DNA from: Candidatus Iainarchaeum sp.
GTDB taxonomy: Archaea > Iainarchaeota > Iainarchaeia > Iainarchaeales > JAFCCJ01
NCBI GenBank assembly: GCA_043816965.1
Contig: JBDRHK010000015.1
Span: forward strand, 1 to 64,000
DNA length: 64,000 nt
Direction: 5' to 3'
The position numbers and the translations under genes are program-made. This document shows, one piece after another, positions 1 to 60,695 of the stretch. A model generated the notes under the pieces. That model saw only the letters and a list, made by a program, of their open reading frames with translations, searched no databases and was not told the DNA's origin. Each line of letters starts with the position of its first letter. The stretch's first letter is position 1.

Positions 1-141
1 ACAACTGAAGCGATGCATAAATATGTCACAGAAAGCCAGCAAAAACACTGGAAAGCGGAAAAGCCGAAACCCGCGCAGACGACGCTGCTGCAGTTCAATT
101 GATTACAAAGACGCCTGCCGCTTCAGCGGCAGGTAGTTCAC
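1..141 (+). mobile_element. tnpA: Right end of an IS200/IS605-family element (3' end of tnpA plus RE hairpin), continuing beyond the window
   Basis: Frame 1 reads TTEAMHKYVTESQQKHW...QFN* (stop 100-102), like the C-terminal catalytic-Tyr helix of Y1 transposases; followed by hairpin CCTGCCGC-TTCA-GCGGCAGG (114-133) and TAGTTCAC (134-141), typical of IS200/605 right ends. Confidence 0.8.
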
Positions 142-748
142 AAACGATAATCAATTCGAACATATTTCCCCGTTGTTTAATATTTATTGGCGTACTTATA
201 AAAATCTCTTGAAAGATATTCCCAACATAGTCTATGAATTGTTTTGAAAAATGTAGCAATTCTTTTTTGTAATGTCCATCATATATTCTTACTTGCTCCT
301 CATTAAGATAACCGTCACCATAAATTACCCCCGCCAAATATGCCAATTTTGGATCAAGCAAGTTATTTTTGTCCAATGGAAATCTGATTACTTGGCCCTT
401 ATAATTCACTACGCAATTTGTGAATAGTTCTTCTGTTACATTTGAATCTTTTAGGTAAAGAGTTAAAGCTCTAAGCAGAGTTATTGGGAAAGTTTGTGAC
501 TTTATATATTGTTTCAATTTTACTGATTTAAGTAAAAAATTTGCATTTAGGTAATTTTTGTAAAAATTCCTGAACTCAAGATAGTCGTTTTTATTGCATT
601 GCTCAGAGATTATTCTTGCAGCTAAGAGGGATACCATCTTGAAACTTGACCTTAAAGTTGGATTCTTGTTAGTGGTACATGCGGCAATATTCAATTGGTT
701 GCCAATGAACTTGCTATTGTAAAATTTGTCATTTTCGAGTTTTATCAT
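142..748 (-). pseudogene. Free-standing LAGLIDADG endonuclease-like gene interrupted by the IS200 element
   Basis: Motif LAYLAGVIYGDG; probable start ATG at 748; after MFELIIV the frame runs into the IS end and no second LAGLIDADG motif is reached. Confidence 0.75.
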
Positions 749-786
749 AGTTGTATTAATTTGTTCTTTAGGAAATATATCGTCGT

Positions 787-810
787 TTCGGGACCTCCTT
801 TCCGGTGCGG
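787..810 (-). promoter_or_regulatory. 24-bp motif upstream of a LAGLIDADG gene, copy 1
   Basis: CCGCACCGGAAAGGAGGTCCCGAA on minus strand; matches 44591-44614 and 58007-58030. Confidence 0.65.
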
Positions 811-905
811 GATTCATGCTAAAATCACCATTACTGCCATTTCTGAAAACGCGGAAACTGAACACATCAAGAAAAACGAAACCGGAAGTAAAATGAAGAG
901 ACTCA

Positions 906-1028
906 TTACAAATCACTTCCGGATTTTGACAAGAGCCATATTTCCCTGTCCGTCAGTTCTTCTAAATTAGACTCTTTTAAAATCTCTAAACTTTGAATTT
1001 CTTTATTTGTTAAAAATGGAATTTTCAT
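906..1028 (-). CDS. Conserved 40-aa small protein, copy 1
   Basis: MKIPFLTNKEIQSLEILKESNLEELTDREIWLLSKSGSDL; RBS GGAGGTGA upstream; similar to ORF 57867-57998. Confidence 0.7.
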   Translation of the reverse strand: MKIPFLTNKEIQSLEILKESNLEELTDREIWLLSKSGSDL

Positions 1029-1196
1029 CAACCAAATCACCTCCTGGAAAGATGAATTTTTTCCGGAGCCGTCTTGCGGGTTTTGGAGGCATTAAATCCT
1101 TTGCACAAGTATGCTAATTTAAACGTGCAAAGGTTTAAGCCGAGAAAATCCGAGTCGTAGGAAAAAATTCCTCGAAGGAGGTGATTAATGAAAATT
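1020..1196 (-). repeat. Long imperfect inverted repeat / fold-back hairpin, copy 1
   Basis: Nested complementary blocks AATCACCTCC/GGAGGTGATT, GAATTTTTTC/GAAAAAATTC, CCTTTGCAC/GTGCAAAGG; homologous to 57694-57882. Confidence 0.85.
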
Positions 1197-9527: not shown

Positions 9528-10035
9528 GAGTTACCACTATTCCGGCATAATTATCCATATTGTCTATTTTTAATCCGCCTGAGCAGTTAACACTGCTACT
9601 ATCTAATAATAAGTCAAACACCTTGGCACATTTTTCATTATCCCCATCAATGTCATTAATGCAGGCAGACGGGGCCGAGTAAGCATTCAATAAAATCCCG
9701 TCCAGCGCAACCTGGAAGCAGATCCCATTCACGCAAGTTGCGCCAATATCGCTTAACTGGCAGGTTAGGATGGTGTTCCCAGGCACAAAAAGAGTAATGG
9801 TCCTTTTATTTTCCCCGGGAGCAACGCTCACAGCATCAATGGTATTTGCAAGCTTTTCCGCGGCAAATCTCGCCTGGCCAATCCTTGCGGTTTCCTTGCC
9901 GCTTGCGGCGGCAATTGTAAGCGAAGGGTTAACGACAGTCTGAATGAACAGGGCAATAATCATCACAAGCATAATTATTTCAATAGAGGCCTGACCCCGC
10001 CTGCCTAAATTTTGAAAAAAGGAAATAGAACCCAT
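9481..10035 (-). CDS. Pilin-like protein (class III signal peptide)
   Basis: RRG|QASIE plus hydrophobic stretch. Confidence 0.75.
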   Translation of the reverse strand: MGSISFFQNLGRRGQASIEIIMLVMIIALFIQTVVNPSLTIAAASGKETARIGQARFAAEKLANTIDAVSVAPGENKRTITLFVPGNTILTCQLSDIGATCVNGICFQVALDGILLNAYSAPSACINDIDGDNEKCAKVFDLLLDSSSVNCSGGLKIDNMDNYAGIVVTLEVEKDGSTTTVKLA

Positions 10036-44647: not shown

Positions 44648-47107
44648 ATGGGTATTAAAGGACTTGATTGTAAAACAGAATATCATTGGTTTGATGAGCC
44701 AGATACTGTAAGAGTTAGATTAGAAAAAGAGCTCTGGGAAATATTTATAAATAAGGCAATTGCGAAGGCAGGCTCAAGAACCAGATTAGCAAATGCAACT
44801 GGACTATGCAAGGTAACTGTTTTCAATTATTTCCACAATATAAGTTTGACCGTAGGAGGGGTAAAGAAAATTCTTAATTTTTTAAACATTGATTACATGT
44901 CGGTTGAAGATAAAGTTAGGGAAATTGCTTGGACTAAAAACATTAAATTGCCAATAAAACTTAATACGCCATCTATGGCTACTATTTTAGCAGCAGTAAT
45001 TGGAGATGGAACTATTAGTGAAGTGCACGTAGAATATAAAAACAAGGATAGTGAGCTACTGAATAAAGTCGAGAAAGAAATAAAAAAGACTTTTGGAAAT
45101 GTTAAAATAGATCATAGAATTTCTGAGAAGGGCATTCCTTATATAGTTGCTAACAAAATTGTTAAAAGAGTTTTAATAAACGTTGGAGTGCCCGTTGGCA
45201 AAAAATTAAATAAAAATTCTGGAGTTCCAAAGATTATTGTGAATGGTTCAAAAAGAATGCAAAAAGCATTTATTCAGCAATTATTTGATGATGAAGGTTG
45301 GGTTGAAAACACCAATTATAAAATTGGATTATCGCAAGCCAATGAGTGTACTAATGCAATTAACAAAAAATTTTTTTCTGGAATGAAAATAAACAAGCCC
45401 TACAGCATAAATAAAATCCCCGAAGAAAATCGAAATAATGTTTTGCCTCCTCAACTCTTAACAGGCATAAGAAAAATCCTACATGAAAAATTTTTAGTCG
45501 AGTCCAATCTAAGGCTAAAAAGAATAATAAGGCGGAGAAAAGGATATGTTACTGCATTCTGGGAACTTAATGTGGGCAAGAAAGAATCATTATTAAACTT
45601 CAAAAATAGAATTGGATTTTATTGCAAGAGAAAAAGAAAAGACTTTGATTTAATGGTTGGATTAAGAGAAAGCATGGTTCCAAAAGACATTCTAAGTCAA
45701 ATATTTTACGAAGGAGCGAATCTTTCGAAGGAAAATGGGAGGTTTAAAGTTAAGGAAATATCCAAAAAGGTAAATCTCCACCCGTCCCGTATCAGGAAGA
45801 GGCTACAGACTCTCGTAAAAAGAGGTGTTTTTTATAAGAAAAATGGCGACTATGGCCTAAATCATAGTTATTTAATTAAAACCTTTTTTAACTCAACTAA
45901 TAGGGGTTTAATGCAAATAGGTTGTGTGGGTAAACCATCGAGTGGTAAGAGCACGTTTTTCAGTGCTGCAACACTTACTGATGTTGAAATTGATATGCGG
46001 CCATTCACAACTATCAAAGCTAATATTGGAACAGGATATATAACGACAAAATGCGTGCATGGGGAATTTGGCAAACAGTGCCAACCCCAGAATAGTAAAT
46101 GCGTAAATGGCATTAGACTCATACCAATTCAACTTTTAGATGTTGCAGGGCTAATTGAAGGTAGCTGGCAAGGTAAAGGACTTGGAAATTCTTTCATGTC
46201 GGATTTAATGCAAGCAAGTGCTTTAATCCATGTTTTGGATGTTGCCGGAATAACAGATGCGCAGGGCAATGTCTGTGGTTCAGGAACGCATGATCCGGCA
46301 GTTGACATTAAGTTTCTCGAGAGGGAGATTTCATATTGGATAAAAAGCATTTTAACAAAAAACTGGGCTAAAATAAGTAAACAATCCGGATTGAATGAGA
46401 AGGGTCCTGGAGTAGCATTGGCAAAACAGTTGAGCGGATTGGGAATAAGTGAAGATTGTGTGAATGATGTTTTGAAAGAAGGCAATTTCAGTGATAAGCC
46501 ATATTCATGGAACGAAGAAGAAATTTTGAGATTTAGCGGGCTGGTTAGGGATAAAAGCAAACCTTTGTTGATTGCTGCCAATAAGATAGATCTTGCTGGG
46601 GCGCGAGAAAAATATGAAAAAATAAAGAAAGAATTTCCAAATTATAAGATTTTTCCAACTTCCGGAGCGGCAGAGCTTGCATTAAGAAAAGCAGAGAGAA
46701 ATGGGATAATAAAGTATGTTCCAGGTGAAGATAAGTTCGAGATTGTAAAAGGAGATATTGATGAAAAGCAAAGGAAAGGATTAGATTTTATTCAGAAAAA
46801 TATCCTTGATAAATATGGTTCGACCGGGATACAGAACGTGTTAAATAAAACAGCATTTGAACTTTTGGATTTGATAGTAGTTTATCCTGTTGAGGACCAG
46901 AATAAGTGGACAAGTGGGCAGGGAAATATTCTCCCAGATGCTTATTTGTTGAAGAGAGGAAGTACTCCAAAAGATTTATCTGGCAAAATTCACAGTGATT
47001 TTATTGATAAGTATATTGGGTCAATAAATTGCAAAACAGGCCAAAAGATTTCTGAAAATTATAAACTGCAAAACAACGATGTTATCAAAATTATGCTCTC
47101 TCACTAA
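44648..47107 (+). CDS. ychF: LAGLIDADG endonuclease-like/HTH region fused in frame to a YchF/Ola1-type GTPase (GTPase part from 45911)
   Basis: ILAAVIGDG and FIQQLFDDEG; then MQIGCVGKPSSGKST, PFTTI, DVAGL, ANKID, TGS domain. Confidence 0.85.
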   Translation: MGIKGLDCKTEYHWFDEPDTVRVRLEKELWEIFINKAIAKAGSRTRLANATGLCKVTVFNYFHNISLTVGGVKKILNFLNIDYMSVEDKVREIAWTKNIKLPIKLNTPSMATILAAVIGDGTISEVHVEYKNKDSELLNKVEKEIKKTFGNVKIDHRISEKGIPYIVANKIVKRVLINVGVPVGKKLNKNSGVPKIIVNGSKRMQKAFIQQLFDDEGWVENTNYKIGLSQANECTNAINKKFFSGMKINKPYSINKIPEENRNNVLPPQLLTGIRKILHEKFLVESNLRLKRIIRRRKGYVTAFWELNVGKKESLLNFKNRIGFYCKRKRKDFDLMVGLRESMVPKDILSQIFYEGANLSKENGRFKVKEISKKVNLHPSRIRKRLQTLVKRGVFYKKNGDYGLNHSYLIKTFFNSTNRGLMQIGCVGKPSSGKSTFFSAATLTDVEIDMRPFTTIKANIGTGYITTKCVHGEFGKQCQPQNSKCVNGIRLIPIQLLDVAGLIEGSWQGKGLGNSFMSDLMQASALIHVLDVAGITDAQGNVCGSGTHDPAVDIKFLEREISYWIKSILTKNWAKISKQSGLNEKGPGVALAKQLSGLGISEDCVNDVLKEGNFSDKPYSWNEEEILRFSGLVRDKSKPLLIAANKIDLAGAREKYEKIKKEFPNYKIFPTSGAAELALRKAERNGIIKYVPGEDKFEIVKGDIDEKQRKGLDFIQKNILDKYGSTGIQNVLNKTAFELLDLIVVYPVEDQNKWTSGQGNILPDAYLLKRGSTPKDLSGKIHSDFIDKYIGSINCKTGQKISENYKLQNNDVIKIMLSH

Positions 47108-56078: not shown

Positions 56079-57101
56079 ATGGCTGAGAAATCCAAATACC
56101 CGGATACCAATAAGATAGAGGTTCCCCGCAAGCTTATTGACCAGGTTATCGGGCAGGAATCTTCAGTGGAGCTTATCCGGAAAGCCGCCGCGCAAAAAAG
56201 AAATGTATTGCTTGTAGGCCTCCCAGGAACTGGAAAATCAATGCTTGCCCAGGCAATGTCTGAAATTCTGCCGATTCAGCGTTTGGTGGATGTCCTAATT
56301 TACCCCAATTCCGAGGATGCCAATACCCCGAAAGTGAGGGTTATGAGGGCAGGAGAGGGGCAGAAAGTTCTCCAACGGGCAAGGCTGGATGCAAAGGGCC
56401 AGGAAGACAATATTAGGCTGATGGGCCTGCTTCTCCCTTTGGGCTGGTTTATAATAACCTGGCTGATGTATGCTGTTTTTGGCTTAATGCATGTGAATGT
56501 TTATGCCGCAAGCCTTATTTTGGGCGGATTCCTTATAGTCGCACTTGCATTAGGGAGCCAGATGAAAATAAGGCAGGGAACAACAATCCCAAAACTCCTA
56601 ATTAACAATGCCGGAAAAAAGATTGCCCCTTTTATTGAGGCAACTGGTGCAAGGGCAGGTGCATTGCTAGGGGATGTAAGGCATGACCCGCTGCAATGTT
56701 TTTACGGCTTTAACGTGCTTTATTTACAAAAAGAAGATCAAAATGGATCTGAATTTGTAGAAAAACCATTTTTAGAGCTTTGGGAAGAAATGTACGAAAA
56801 GTATGGCAAAGAAGTTATACGAAACAGTAAAGGATACGAAGCAATAATGATTCCGCCTGAGGAAAAGATTTATACTTTGGGGCATAAAGATGGCAAGGTC
56901 ATTTTATCAAGAATACTTTCCCTTAACAGACAGCCTTTTGAGGGAGAGCTTGTTGAATTAAAAGTTGGAGATAAGACAGTTTCATTGACGCCAGAGCATA
57001 AAGTAGATACTGCAAAAGGCGACAAAGAGGCAGGTCAGATTTCTGAAAGAGACGGTTTGATTAAACTGGTTAAGGTTGAACTTGCCAAGATTCTCAGTTA
57101 G
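56079..57101 (+). CDS. lonB: LonB N-terminal part fused to split-intein N fragment
   Basis: LIDQVIGQ, GLPGTGKS, two TMs, GALLGDVRHDPLQ|CFYG...; stop after 134 intein residues. Confidence 0.93.
   Translation: MAEKSKYPDTNKIEVPRKLIDQVIGQESSVELIRKAAAQKRNVLLVGLPGTGKSMLAQAMSEILPIQRLVDVLIYPNSEDANTPKVRVMRAGEGQKVLQRARLDAKGQEDNIRLMGLLLPLGWFIITWLMYAVFGLMHVNVYAASLILGGFLIVALALGSQMKIRQGTTIPKLLINNAGKKIAPFIEATGARAGALLGDVRHDPLQCFYGFNVLYLQKEDQNGSEFVEKPFLELWEEMYEKYGKEVIRNSKGYEAIMIPPEEKIYTLGHKDGKVILSRILSLNRQPFEGELVELKVGDKTVSLTPEHKVDTAKGDKEAGQISERDGLIKLVKVELAKILS
56697..57098 (+). mobile_element. Split intein N fragment (134 aa)
   Basis: Cys1 directly after DPLQ; block B LTPEH (TxxH). Confidence 0.9.
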
Positions 57102-57154: not shown

Positions 57155-57640
57155 TTAGGCTTCAACAAATTGCCCTGTTTCTAGATTTCTTTTGCATTTG
57201 TCCCAAGTATAAACTCTGCCATTCATTGCAATGTAAACGCCGTTCTCAAGGACATTTATAAGGCCAATTGCCACCCCGATATTAAATGAGGCATCTGAAT
57301 TAGAGAATTTTTCTGGCCTCATAGCGCCTGTCAAAATTATAACTTTATTAATATCGCTTAGATTTTTGGCAGTTTCAATCATTGTATCTGTTCCATGGGT
57401 AATTATAATTTTATCAGCATCTGCCTTTTGGCAAGCAGCATATATTTTCTACCTGTCTTTTTCTGTAATGTCTAGGCTATCTTTTTTGAGAACTGAGATC
57501 ACTTCAAAATCAAAGCAGGGATTTACTTTTTGCAGTATTCTTGTTACGGCAGGTTCAGCGATTTCAAAGGCATACCCATTTGTCGTTCTTGGATAGTCTT
57601 TATCAATTGTTCCCCCAGTTTGAATGAAAAATATCTTCAT
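57155..57640 (-). pseudogene. Short asparaginase-domain gene with one in-frame TAG (57449-57451)
   Basis: TGGTIDK, HGTDTM, LTGAMRP, SDASFN all in one frame; DR*KIY. Confidence 0.85.
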
Positions 57641-57693: not shown

Positions 57694-57882
57694 TATTTTT
57701 AAAAAATTCACCACCTCCAATAGAGAATTTTTTCTAAGGACTCTGATTTTCTCGGCTTAAACCTTTGCACGCCTGATTTCTACTTTTGGTGCAAAGGATT
57801 TAATGCCTCCAAAATCAGCAGAGACGTCCACGAAAAAATTCATTATTCTTGGAGGTGGTTTGATTGATGAATTTTCAAAATA
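57694..57882 (+). repeat. Long imperfect inverted repeat / fold-back hairpin, copy 2
   Basis: CCACCTCCAA/TTGGAGGTGG, GAATTTTTTC/GAAAAAATTC, CTGATTTT/AAAATCAG, CCTTTGCAC/GTGCAAAGG. Confidence 0.85.
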
Positions 57883-57998
57883 TTCAACTTCCCACAAGGG
57901 GAGAGATAAGGATGGCTGAAGAACTAGCCAGGTCAAATCCGGAGAACCTGACAGACAGGGAACTCTGGATTCTGAAAGAGACAGTGGGTGATTTCTAA
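57867..57998 (+). CDS. Conserved 43-aa small protein, copy 2
   Basis: MNFQNIQLPTRGEIRMAEELARSNPENLTDRELWILKETVGDF; RBS GGAGGTG at 57851. Confidence 0.7.
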   Translation: MNFQNIQLPTRGEIRMAEELARSNPENLTDRELWILKETVGDF

Positions 57999-58006
57999 TG
58001 CTTTTC

Positions 58007-58030
58007 CCGCATCGGAAGCCTACTCCCAAA
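58007..58030 (+). promoter_or_regulatory. 24-bp motif upstream of a LAGLIDADG gene, copy 3
   Basis: CCGCATCGGAAGCCTACTCCCAAA followed by TTTATAAG. Confidence 0.65.
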
Positions 58031-58075
58031 ATAGTTTATAAGAGTGAAAAACAGAATTTTAACAGAAGGGCTATA

Positions 58076-59074
58076 ATGTTGATCACTGAACAAGACATAA
58101 TTAATACTTATTCACAAGAGGAACAATGCTCTTGTAGAAAATATGTTGAATACAAGGAACTAATGCGAGAGAATCCTTCTTTTGGTTATAAGCGTTGTGC
58201 AAAACTATTAGGCGTTTCTCAGGGCAGAGTAAGGTGGTGGCATACCAAAGGGGCAAAGAGAGCAGTTCCATTAGCCCTGAAGGCGGTTGAGAAACTTAAG
58301 AACGTTGGCATAATTCCATTTACTGAAGAGCACAAACACGCCAACGTAATTCTCAATATTTTAGGGACCCTTTTTGGAGATGGCGGAATTGACAGAAGGC
58401 TCAATACAGCGGCGTTCATCTCCTCAGACAAAAAGGATGTTGATTTATGGAAGAAAGATTTGCTCGAGGCATTTCCCTTTGCAAAAAACAAAATGAATCT
58501 TGTAGAAGGGGGAGAGTGGGGGCATTCATATAACATTAGGACTTTTGATAGGAGTATTATAAGATTCTTTGTTGCATTAGGAGCGCCAGTTGGGGATAAG
58601 GTTGCTATAAAATACAGTTTGCCAAACTACATTTTCAACGTATCCTACGAACATAGGATTGCATTTTTGGATGGTATGTTAGCATCAGAGGTCTCAGTTC
58701 CGAGATTTAGGGACGATTCTTACCAGAACAAGAGATTCACAGATTTCAGTTTAAGTTTATCAAAAATTGATACATTACAAGACGAGCATAGGCTTTTTAT
58801 GAGGAGTTTTGAAGATTTATTAAATTCTGTTGAAGTGGCCACAACAGGTAATCTGAGAAAAGATTTTCATCTAAAAAGAAAAAGAAAGGACGGTCATTTA
58901 AGTTCGCCTTACAGGATTTTCATTAGAACAATTTTTTGGAGAGTTTTATATTTCAACAATTTATTTCCTTTAAGGTACTGTCATGGCAAGAAAAAACGTC
59001 TGCAAAAAGAAATTGAATTTGCAGTAAACTACAAGCAGAAATCTGTTAAACGGGGATTGGAGAAATGCCTATGA
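58076..59074 (+). CDS. Free-standing LAGLIDADG homing endonuclease with N-terminal HTH
   Basis: GYKRCAKLLGVS HTH; ILGTLFGDG and FLDGMLASE; probable start MLITEQD. Confidence 0.88.
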   Translation: MLITEQDIINTYSQEEQCSCRKYVEYKELMRENPSFGYKRCAKLLGVSQGRVRWWHTKGAKRAVPLALKAVEKLKNVGIIPFTEEHKHANVILNILGTLFGDGGIDRRLNTAAFISSDKKDVDLWKKDLLEAFPFAKNKMNLVEGGEWGHSYNIRTFDRSIIRFFVALGAPVGDKVAIKYSLPNYIFNVSYEHRIAFLDGMLASEVSVPRFRDDSYQNKRFTDFSLSLSKIDTLQDEHRLFMRSFEDLLNSVEVATTGNLRKDFHLKRKRKDGHLSSPYRIFIRTIFWRVLYFNNLFPLRYCHGKKKRLQKEIEFAVNYKQKSVKRGLEKCL

Positions 59075-59184
59075 AATCTGTTTTAAAAATACTATTGGTG
59101 TTGGCTATACTTGCTGGTTTTATTTTTTTAGCATCCTATGTATTTGGTTTTATTAATATGCTTGTTTTTTCTACAATTTTCTAA
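59071..59184 (+). CDS. Small hydrophobic protein, 37 aa
   Basis: MKSVLKILLVLAILAGFIFLASYVFGFINMLVFSTIF; ATGA overlap with endonuclease stop; GGAG upstream. Confidence 0.45.
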   Translation: MKSVLKILLVLAILAGFIFLASYVFGFINMLVFSTIF

Positions 59185-59273: not shown

Positions 59274-59396
59274 ATGGAACATAAATCAAAAACAGAGAGG
59301 GTTTCTTCAGTATCTAAGCGGCCTTTTAGGGGTCATGTCTATAATGTTACAACTGAAACAGGCAACCTCTTTGTTGAGGATGTTCTGGTTCACAAT
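59274..59396 (+). mobile_element. Split intein C fragment (41 aa)
   Basis: Block F VYNVTT..GN and block G VLVHN|S. Confidence 0.92.
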
Positions 59397-60695
59397 TCGG
59401 GCGGGTTGGGAACACCCCCTCACTTGCGTGTTGAGCCAGGAATGGTCCACAGGGTTAATGGAGGGGTTCTCTTTTTGGATGAGATTTCCACTCTCTCCCC
59501 AAAATCCCAGCAGGAATTGCTTACAGCAATGCAGGAAAAGAAATTCTCAATTACGGGCCAAAGCGAGATGAGTTCAGGTGCAATGACAAGGACAGAGCCG
59601 GTTCCATGCGATTTTGTCCTTATTGCCGCAGGGAATTACAATGATTTGAGAAAAGTTCATCCTGCACTTAGGAGCAGGATAAGGGGCTATGGTTATGAGG
59701 TCTATATGAACCTTGAAATGGAAGACAATGAGGAGAACAGGAAAAAGATTGTGCAGTTTATTGCGCAGGAAGTAACAAAGGATGCCAAAATCCCGCATTT
59801 CTCGGCAGATGCAATTGAGTCAATTATTTTCGAGGCAAGGAGAAGGGCAGGAAGGAAAAATAAACTCACCCTTAAGTTAAGGGATTTAGGCGGGCTGGTC
59901 AGGGCCGCAGGAGACATTGCAAAGGAAAAAGGCCATGGCCTGGTTGACGCACAGGATGTTCTCGAGGCAAAGATGTCGGCAAGAACCCTGGAACAGCAGA
60001 TGGTTAACAAAATTATTGATGAAAAGAAGGATTATGATGTTTACCTTTTTGAGGGAAGTGCCATTGGGAGGGTTAACGGCCTTGCGGTTTCAGCAGACGG
60101 GGATGCGGGGCTCATCCTGCCCATAGAGGCAGAAGTTGCCCCTGCCCAGAGCAGTGCTGAAGGCAAGCTAATTGCAACCGGAAAGCTTGGGGAGATAGCA
60201 AAGGAAGCTGTGCAGAATGTCTCCGCAATAATAAAGAAATTGAGCGGAAAAGACATTGCCAGCCATGACCTCCATATTCAGTTCCTCCAAACCTACTCAG
60301 GTGTTGAGGGCGACAGCGCGTCAGTTAGTGTTGCAACAGCGGTGATTTCCGCGCTTGAGGGAATTCCTGTAAAGCAGAGCCTTGCAATGACCGGTTCTTT
60401 AAGTGTCAGGGGAGAGGTTCTGCCAGTGGGAGGTGTTACGGCGAAAGTTTCAGCTGCAATCTTTGCTGGATTTAAGGAAGTAATTGTCCCATATGCAAAT
60501 AAGGACGATATTATTCTTCACAAAGAACGCCTGGATAAAATAAAAGTAATTCCCGCAAAAAACCTTTCCGATGTCCTGGAAAATGCATTTGAAAAATCCC
60601 CTAAAAAGAAAAAGTTCATGACCTCCTTGAAAAAACTGCTTCACATCGAACTTTCAAATGTAGTGGAAAAAGTGATTCCCAAAACAGTGGCATGA
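59274..60695 (+). CDS. lonB: Split-intein C fragment fused to LonB C-terminal part
   Basis: [44 protein letters not shown]. Confidence 0.95.

Follow-up and report, generated by a model that had tools for sequence, protein, structure and literature searches.

A Shine-Dalgarno-burying fold-back in front of homing-endonuclease-type genes of an archaeal order

A stretch of 64,000 nucleotides from Candidatus Iainarchaeum sp. (assembly GCA_043816965.1, contig JBDRHK010000015.1, positions 1 to 64,000; hereafter the window) carries two copies, A and B, of a long fold-back that buries a Shine-Dalgarno sequence (SD) ahead of an endonuclease-type open reading frame (ORF). Its pairing is maintained by compensatory changes. 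The two copies belong to a large, homologous and strongly covarying structured leader, for which there is no Rfam family and which was matched more than 100 times in 55 of the 150 genomes sampled from one DPANN order. With moderate confidence, we take the module to be the conserved front end of free-standing LAGLIDADG homing-endonuclease cassettes, acting in cis as an expression insulator like the hairpins of T4 I-TevI and of mobE. This suggests that archaea arrived at the same combination of hairpin and internal promoter by which phage T4 keeps its homing endonucleases quiet.

Structure, covariation and distribution of the fold-back

The core sequences of the fold-back occur exactly twice each in the window with 0 mismatches, at 57745-57771 and 57789-57814 (+) in copy A and at 1124-1150 and 1081-1106 (-) in copy B; by chance, 0 occurrences of the paired cores are expected (100 shuffles of the window). 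Both regions fold into a single long imperfect hairpin of about 160 nt, at -61.9 kcal/mol for copy A (z-score -7.2) and -61.4 kcal/mol for copy B (z-score -6.4), and none of 200 shuffles folded equally well. At the base of the stem, the anti-SD CACCACCTCC of copy A pairs with the SD GGAGGTGG, which lies 8 nt ahead of the TTG/ATG at 57864/57867. The same pairing is made in copy B by TCACCTCC and GGAGGTGA. The SD, reading GGAGGTG(G/A) and placed a few bases ahead of TTG/ATG, is paired within a stable predicted RNA structure at both loci, and an alignment of the two reveals no relation between their apical loops. A preliminary description of the window, made from its letters alone, had already reported one fold-back with identical cores and unrelated loops at two loci, burying the ribosome-binding site (RBS) of a conserved peptide ORF, and both copies bear this out. 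It had underestimated the scale of the module: the genome (1.34 Mb in 109 contigs, 86% complete) holds eight copies, A to H.

In a multiple alignment of these eight copies, homology begins at the first base of the anti-SD, with unrelated flanks upstream, spans the hairpin and a small ORF and ends inside a shared downstream motif, described below as P2. In G and H, a hydrophobic ORF of 50 aa is part of the homologous stretch as well; it is shortened in B and partly deleted in F.

By BLASTN, the module was found in 17 of 60 related genomes. A covariance model was built from 26 copies with the copy A fold as the reference structure, and its matches in the 150 other genomes sampled from the same order reach 12 forward copies per genome. 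The distribution is uneven by family: 16/16, 12/16 and 9/16 genomes were positive in three families and 0/16 in another. In a phylum-wide sample, all genomes with a match, among those listed, belong to the same order, and the model found no hairpin in the 11 genomes of families f33-f37. These samples consist of incomplete genomes, and absence means not found in the genomes searched.

For pair counts, we aligned 49 forward matches from 30 genomes to the covariance model. Pairing cells amount to 91.2% in the 49 copies versus 84.3% in shuffles, and double-sided changes occur at 34 of 53 pairs versus 17.4 +/- 1.8, the observed count being reached in 0 of 500 shuffles; the alignment is fitted to the structure and the copies are related, so that the shuffle counts overstate independence, which weakens the case to that extent. 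Double-change cells number 171, as against 14-52 with slid partners. The stem ends at the SD in every copy, and by eye SD variants are matched in the 5' arm: in one locus (L034) both sides of the SD pairing have changed, and in another (L024) the stem is extended. The arm differences between copies A and B had been read as partly compensatory, in agreement with the covariation across the 49 structure-aligned copies. Because of indels, alifold on a MAFFT alignment recovers the apical helices alone, and the model-based alignment was used instead.

No Rfam family matched the window at the gathering score, the only weak match being a plant miRNA precursor model at 16.5 bits versus 117. The preliminary description had not recognised a described family, and the hairpin indeed lies outside Rfam. 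None of the outcomes that it had named as refuting its reading came about: covariation is present, no Rfam family matches, and this genome holds no solo copies of the kind left by a miniature inverted-repeat transposable element (MITE).

Endonucleases, small proteins and a promoter element behind the hairpin

A homing-endonuclease-type gene lies directly downstream of the hairpin. The ORFs of 26 of the 49 hairpin loci have a LAGLIDADG match in Pfam (E <= 0.001), and 45 of 51 downstream ORFs fall into one BLASTP group with the Pfam-positive ones under single linkage, whose links may partly run via helix-turn-helix (HTH) domains. The idea that the hairpin unit travels with homing-endonuclease genes is confirmed on this larger set. 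Neither ORF of the window reaches the threshold of a LAGLIDADG family (PF14528 or PF00961). ORF A has no LAGLIDADG match in Pfam even at E <= 10; it does match locally the endonuclease part of the intein-containing RtcB model (6.2e-17), and it belongs to the BLASTP group of Pfam-positive ORFs. ORF B scores below threshold against PF14528 (E 0.066, 13.9 bits versus a cutoff of 22.5) and is probably truncated or decayed. The earlier assignment of a LAGLIDADG ORF to both copies is upheld by LAGLIDADG-like motifs, not by family-level library matches. The two nucleases had also been called dissimilar, and indeed BLASTP finds no similarity between them beyond chance. For the conserved endonuclease proteins, the likeliest starts are ATG 58076 (A) and ATG 748 (B), both on the downstream side of the shared motif; ATG 58076 is the start position in orthologues of the copy A nuclease.

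The SD of the hairpin usually serves a small gene. Homologous peptide ORFs follow it at 57864-57998 (+) in copy A and 1040-906 (-) in copy B; in the latter, a second, degenerate small ORF separates the peptide from the motif. This class-1 peptide (consensus ...P..EEI...A..NPE.L..RE.W.L...) stands behind 28 of the 49 hairpins by pattern and 2 more by eye. An unrelated class-2 peptide stands behind 10 by pattern and 2 by eye, mostly within one family of genomes. No small peptide is present at four loci (L016, L017, L021, L032), where the start codon of the hairpin opens a frame in phase with the nuclease, and the remaining three (L034, L035, L052) have a degenerate or another short ORF.

Class 1 is a real gene under purifying selection. 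Its entropy per codon position is 1.04/0.83/1.32, the third position being the most variable, and its median dN/dS is 0.37 across 178 usable pairs. Homologous conserved peptides of about 40 aa had been noted at both loci, and this judgement was sound. Selection of the peptide, the RBS-burying fold and the link to nucleases also agree with the earlier notion of a structured-RNA-controlled peptide travelling with homing endonucleases. The peptide is nevertheless not an obligatory part of the module: about 30 of 49 hairpins have class 1, 12 have class 2 and at least 4 have none.

The class-1 protein is acidic and modelled as two helices (residues 11-23 and 30-39, pLDDT 83.5). We found no match for it in Pfam (25 members searched), in a PDB profile search, in PADLOC or in PHROGs, and Foldseek against the PDB returned nothing at E <= 0.001. 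A ribbon-helix-helix identity was considered and dropped, a beta-alpha-alpha-like length pattern being its sole support, with no family or fold match; other small DNA-binding or antitoxin families likewise gave no sequence or fold match to the 43-aa protein. A full profile scan yielded 85 cluster representatives, of which 83 measure at most 92 aa, and a word-indexed search gave 8 close relatives; fused or longer forms were not found in these searches. The predominance of short representatives marks class 1 as a stand-alone micro-protein. A complex prediction of the 43-aa protein with endonuclease A, run without controls, scored 0.00, which is evidence neither way. Possible roles of the small proteins are control of P2, partnership with the nuclease and membership of an addiction pair. 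The module adds to the repertoire two conserved micro-protein families and a small membrane peptide.

The motif shared by both loci, starting at 58010 (+) in copy A and 807 (-) in copy B, had been described as a 24-bp part of the module. Behind hairpins it extends over about 50 nt: a CACCGG(A/C)A box, a C/T-rich stretch, AAA, a TATA-like TTTAWAA and often GAAAAAC. The CACCGGAA box lies about 25 nt ahead of the TATA-like box. Depending on the copy, the motif falls in all three reading frames, which argues for a nucleotide signal; an RNA hairpin and a coding motif were both rejected because of the three frames and of its recurrence ahead of unrelated genes. We call this element P2. Its pattern has 36 matches in the genome versus 1-7 in ten block shuffles, and its strict form 29 versus 0-3. 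Only 8 of the 36 lie behind hairpins; the sites in the window are 58010, 44594 and 807 (-), and others lie on contigs C5, C21, C22, C28, C31, C35, C50, C81 and elsewhere. The motif is therefore present at both loci as described, but as a genome-wide promoter element and not as a private part of the module.

Twenty ORFs downstream of the non-hairpin P2 sites were searched against Pfam. They include mcm (with an intein), radA, nurA, a radical-SAM/HhH protein, two PIN proteins, five LAGLIDADG ORFs (one at 44648 in the window) and seven without a family. At these sites, start codons mostly lie 51-59 nt after the box. At hairpin loci, an ATG opening the long ORF stands at +53 to +79 in 30 of 49 cases, in 19 of them at +53 to +56, which puts it 26-28 nt behind the TATA-like box. 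Such a distance from TATA box to ATG is the geometry of leaderless archaeal mRNAs, and the fixed spacing implies a putative leaderless mRNA for the endonuclease. The box upstream of radA is found by pattern in 12 of 28 relatives (a 13th match is spurious), and 7 more have near-variants by eye. P2 is a candidate signal of a recombination and replication regulon, and the nucleases appear from their upstream sequence to carry a host-type promoter common to genes of these processes. This makes a connection between the repair programme and DNA cutting by selfish elements open to test.

Free-standing LAGLIDADG-type ORFs number at least 13 in the 1.34 Mb, 8 with the hairpin and 5 with P2 only, in addition to intein-borne ones; the homing-endonuclease gene load of this genome is unusually high.

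Proposed insulation of the endonuclease and its alternatives

We propose that RNA entering the cassette from outside would carry both arms and fold into a hairpin of about -56 kcal/mol, burying the only SD upstream of the endonuclease. Neither the small ORF nor, through coupling, the endonuclease frame would then be reached by ribosomes. Incoming transcripts may also be terminated at the T6 run of the 5' arm, oligo-T being a termination signal in archaea. The cassette's own transcript would start about 20 nt ahead of the SD, from a box in the 3' arm (P1) that resembles a TFB-recognition element (BRE) with a TATA box; lacking the 5' arm, P1 RNA would keep its SD free and allow the small protein or proteins to be made. 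From the second promoter, P2, with its 24-bp motif and TATA box, a leaderless endonuclease mRNA would be produced. As the P2 box is the same as that of radA, mcm and nurA, nuclease expression would follow the recombination and replication programme of the host.

We infer an internal start site because the peptide is under selection although the stem holds its SD closed and the sequence upstream is not conserved; the usual distance from TATA box to start would place the RNA start near 57830-57834, within the 3' arm. The 3'-arm core GCAAAGGATTTAAT (GCAAAGG ATTTAAT) resembles the tRNA promoters of this genome, for example GAAAAGG TTTAAAAC before tRNA-Ile. Of all sites in the hairpin, it scores best with a matrix trained on tRNA promoters, which places it among the top 0.086% of positions in the genome. 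The alignment retains two single-base bulges by which the P1 box is lengthened, and the shortest variant (L020) reduces the TATA-to-SD distance to 26 nt and no further. That the fold would act as RNA is argued from the repeat ending at the SD, right ahead of the start codon, in every copy.

Besides the inflated shuffle counts, several observations weigh against this reading. P1 scores 7.9 bits, below most of the training tRNA promoters, and from the matrix frequency an equally good site is estimated to arise by chance in about one in four stretches of this length. A leaderless mRNA from P2 would mean that the hairpin is not needed to control that transcript. G-U cells number 70 versus 44 A-C/C-A cells, which does not favour RNA of the + strand, and in 38 of 49 copies the reverse complement has the slightly more stable fold, with a mean difference of 2.9 kcal/mol; the acting strand is not settled by the sequence, and a DNA-level palindrome or an antisense RNA is possible. 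The upstream neighbour, by a crude ORF call, is co-oriented in 23 of 49 loci, antisense in 23 and absent in 3. There is no bias, so read-through is not always the threat. Four sequencing runs each contain 6-11% of the sampled words; the one RNA run gave a single 215-nt contig (58220-58433) inside endonuclease gene A, with no ends and no strand.

The strand question bears directly on the possibility that the inverted repeat works as DNA: a palindromic operator or cruciform at the cassette promoter, bound by a dimeric regulator (possibly the small protein) and setting transcription. A fold as good or better on the opposite strand and G-U cells not clearly above A-C cells would suit such a site, as would a most conserved part made of paired, mirrored promoter-like boxes and a small protein whose two-helix unit could dimerise. 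However, a DNA site gives no reason for a repeat that always ends at the SD, with variants compensated in the far arm. Its arms of 60-70 bp are far longer than any operator, and no more than 2 of 49 loci have a leftward gene for the mirrored SD and promoter to serve. The peptide is missing from some cassettes that keep the hairpin and matches no DNA-binding family. We consider an operator improbable. On the mirrored side, an ORF of at least 80 codons starts within 60 nt of the mirrored SD at 6 of the 49 loci, and the mirrored SD is directly followed by a long leftward ORF at two (L041, L058), for which reason a bidirectional promoter was rejected. We likewise give little credence to a true RNA switch, in which the entire hairpin would be transcribed, with no promoter inside, and a trans factor (protein, small RNA, helicase, RNase or temperature) would open the stem. 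The conserved 3x3 internal loop (CUC/UCC) and conserved bulges could serve as recognition sites, and the internal promoter that the switch dispenses with is itself a prediction. Such a switch would require a promoter upstream, where no sequence is conserved, and a stem of about -56 kcal/mol would be hard to open; both arms are equally conserved, no alternative fold was found and no Rfam riboswitch matches.

The small proteins could also be the point of the module, the hairpin being a translational brake on an addiction or immunity unit: a nuclease inhibitor or escort, or a membrane-peptide toxin with class 1 as its antidote. RBS-burying 5' folds are typical of type I toxin mRNAs. The peptide is selected, acidic and helical, it is translationally coupled to the next ORF by a TAATG or TGATG overlap, and some copies have a conserved 50-aa two-helix membrane peptide behind it. 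But near-identical peptides precede endonucleases with at most 22-34% identity or nothing in common, orthologous lonB cassettes of other genomes lack the peptide, most cassettes have class 1 without the membrane peptide, and nothing matches in PADLOC, PHROGs, Pfam or PDB sequences. We judge this quite unlikely; the toxin-antitoxin-like unit and the nuclease inhibitor suggested in the preliminary description find no support in anything tested. Already disfavoured, and in our estimate scarcely credible, is the idea that a MITE-like mobile inverted repeat simply came to lie next to endonuclease genes. The length of the repeat (150-170 bp), its many copies per genome and its truncated remnants at two loci (L022, L023) would fit such an element. 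All eight genomic copies, however, are followed by the small ORF and P2, no solo copy was seen in this genome, and nearly all 49 copies examined precede an endonuclease-type ORF in one orientation. The arms hold a functional-looking SD ahead of a start codon, and no target-site duplications were seen.

A further reading concerns the spread of the module within the genome. Copies A, C, D, E and F are 92-94% identical across about 260-300 nt, whereas the nuclease ORFs behind them share local identities of at most 22-34%, or none. The front block has therefore been exchanged or homogenised among cassettes inside the genome. A block of roughly 330 nt (hairpin, small protein gene and promoter box) may itself be a unit that moves between endonuclease loci, and its small proteins may constitute a novel group of controller micro-proteins by which nuclease expression is tied to a recombination and replication regulon, defined by the CACCGGAA box common to radA, mcm and nurA. 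We regard such a mobile controller unit as rather doubtful. If it were real, selfish genes would cut only when the cell is ready to repair.

Split lonB, precedents and genomic neighbourhood

Copy A is set within a split lonB gene (Table 1). The break points read HDPLQ/C... and ...VLVHN/SGG, and the two halves lie on separate ORFs of one strand. The order LonB-N, hairpin and orthologous nuclease, followed by LonB-C where the locus reaches that far, recurs in genomes G036, G053, G051, G056 and G042, with decayed remnants in G052 and G114. Loci with split lonB include L017, L018, L032, L034, L035, L022 and L052; the other genomes with this arrangement number at least five and come from several families. 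Two of them, G036 and G051, lack the small peptide and have their nuclease frame begin at the hairpin SD. From the gene arrangement, the split lonB is a candidate natural split intein, with trans-splicing predicted; its occurrence in several genomes may interest protein engineers. In this window, an asparaginase-like gene is inserted between lonB-N and the hairpin. Its in-frame TAG could reflect a pseudogene, a sequencing error or read-through. We also observed a 39-aa hydrophobic ORF (59065-59184, +) that overlaps the stop of endonuclease A. Directly after it come a promoter-like box and the lonB C-half, whose start looks leaderless.

Table 1 Features of hairpin copies A and B and of the split lonB gene in the window
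Feature	Positions	Strand	Remarks
Copy A, 5' arm	57709..57771	+	anti-SD CACCACCTCC at 57709-57718; T6 run at 57728-57733; homology of all copies starts abruptly here
Copy A, apical loop	57772..57788	+	sequence differs from copy to copy
Copy A, 3' arm	57789..57859	+	promoter-like box GCAAAGG (57791-57797) and ATTTAAT (57798-57804); putative start site about 57830-57834; A6 run at 57833-57838; SD GGAGGTGG at 57851-57858
Copy A, class-1 small protein gene	57867..57998	+	43 aa; alternative TTG start at 57864; stop TAA overlaps next ATG (TAATG)
Copy A, P2 element	58010..58042	+	upstream box CATCGGAA..., BRE-like AAAA, TATA-like TTTATAAG at 58035-58042
Copy A, LAGLIDADG-type endonuclease gene	58076..59074	+	332 aa from conserved Met; frame open back to ATG 57998 (358 aa), N-extended form possible
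lonB N-part (AAA) running into intein N-half	56079..57101	+	intein half after ...HDPLQ
Asparaginase-family gene	57155-57640	-	161 codons; antisense between lonB-N and hairpin; in-frame TAG at 57449-57451 ahead of THGTDT motif
Intein C-half, then lonB C-part	59274..60695	+	intein half ends ...VLVHN
Copy B, fold-back	1025..1185	-	covariance-model match, 148.6 bits
Copy B, class-1 small protein gene	906..1031	-	41 aa and stop; homologue of copy A peptide
Copy B, hydrophobic ORF	814..906	-	30 aa; related to, but shorter than, the two-helix membrane peptide (50 aa) of copies G and H
Copy B, P2 element	770..807	-	CACCGGAA box through TATA-like part
Copy B, endonuclease-like ORF	95..748	-	217 aa; Met at +59 of motif; one LAGLIDADG motif only

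The closest precedents come from phages. The available part of one account describes I-TevI, I-TevII, I-TevIII, segB and mobE (the last from phage Aeh1) as having an RBS-sequestering hairpin and a late promoter placed such that late transcripts cannot form it (PMC2988022). There as here, a very stable hairpin buries the SD just ahead of the cassette's start codon and accompanies selfish endonuclease genes set among essential genes; if the 3'-arm box acts as predicted, the module would also share a promoter placed so that the cassette's own transcripts lack the 5' arm and read-through RNA is left untranslated. Compared with what it reports, the module differs in its archaeal host and a BRE/TATA-like box in place of a sigma-dependent late promoter. 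Its stem is far longer, with about 53 model pairs over about 160 nt, and forms one homologous family across an order; its SD usually serves a small protein gene and not the nuclease; and its nucleases are LAGLIDADG (intein-type), not GIY-YIG or HNH.

Fractured genes (Dassa et al. 2009) provide a second parallel: in the available part of that study, hairpins occur in 15 of 16 endonuclease 5' UTRs (untranslated regions), 10 of them including a late-promoter element, and hairpin remnants persist for gp41-7 after loss of the nuclease (PMC2677866). Similarly, copy A lies between an intein N-half fused to lonB-N and a C-half fused to lonB-C on one strand, with the hairpin in the endonuclease 5' region, and one locus (L022) keeps a hairpin remnant where the nuclease was lost. 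Unlike the cases given there, the host gene is an archaeal lonB, the nuclease is of the LAGLIDADG type and trans-splicing is predicted from the genes alone; the same leader also heads cassettes beside tRNA genes and metG, with no intein. The module had not been recognised as a described family. This holds in that no Rfam family covers it, less so in view of the promoter-enclosing hairpins of T4-type and fractured genes in the portions of these sources available to us (PMC2988022, PMC2677866). Rather than a new kind of system, it seems to be an archaeal form of the hairpin-regulated homing-endonuclease cassette: a homologous family that occurs across an order and has acquired micro-protein genes and a regulon-type promoter. 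In titles and abstracts, with subscription journals and supplements outside coverage, we found no description of this leader, its peptides, the CACCGGAA box or a split LonB intein.

Two bacterial arrangements share part of the logic. Transposase mRNAs of IS10 and IS50 that start at outside promoters are subject to fold-back inhibition, and only these outside transcripts carry the RBS-pairing segment. The pairings there are short, and the elements are bacterial, encode transposases and have no homology to the module. The controller (C) proteins of restriction-modification systems belong to the HTH type, measure about 80 aa and have defined operators; their genes lie just upstream of the nuclease gene and overlap it. 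As with them, a small ORF directly precedes and overlaps an endonuclease gene in a mobile unit that times nuclease expression; in contrast, the 43-aa peptide is optional and has no detectable HTH.

The right-hand neighbours of the cassettes are conserved genes: tRNA-Leu (G), a tRNA-like sequence (F), metG (E), lonB (A) and, on the opposite strand, tRNA-Val and tRNA-Ile (C and D, respectively). No common 3' end of the cassettes was found, the similarity between F and G and between C and D being solely tRNA-derived. Stretches resembling tRNA 3' ends (T-arm and acceptor) on the opposite strand abut the hairpin 5' ends of G (contig C26), L060, L068 and L013, and intact tRNA genes adjoin the 3' ends of nuclease ORFs. 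The cassettes seem to sit in or next to tRNA genes.

Beside cassette E, the methionyl-tRNA synthetase gene (contig C5, about 9790-9900; L004) has an apparent one-base insertion at the HIGH-type motif, which puts its first ~20 codons in a different frame from those that follow. A fault in the assembly may explain it, as may a true frameshift next to a nuclease gene. Divergent from the same cassette, and with the CACCGGAA box in its promoter, lies an mcm gene (contig C5, 5461-7911; L070) whose intein carries a LAGLIDADG domain and an HTH.

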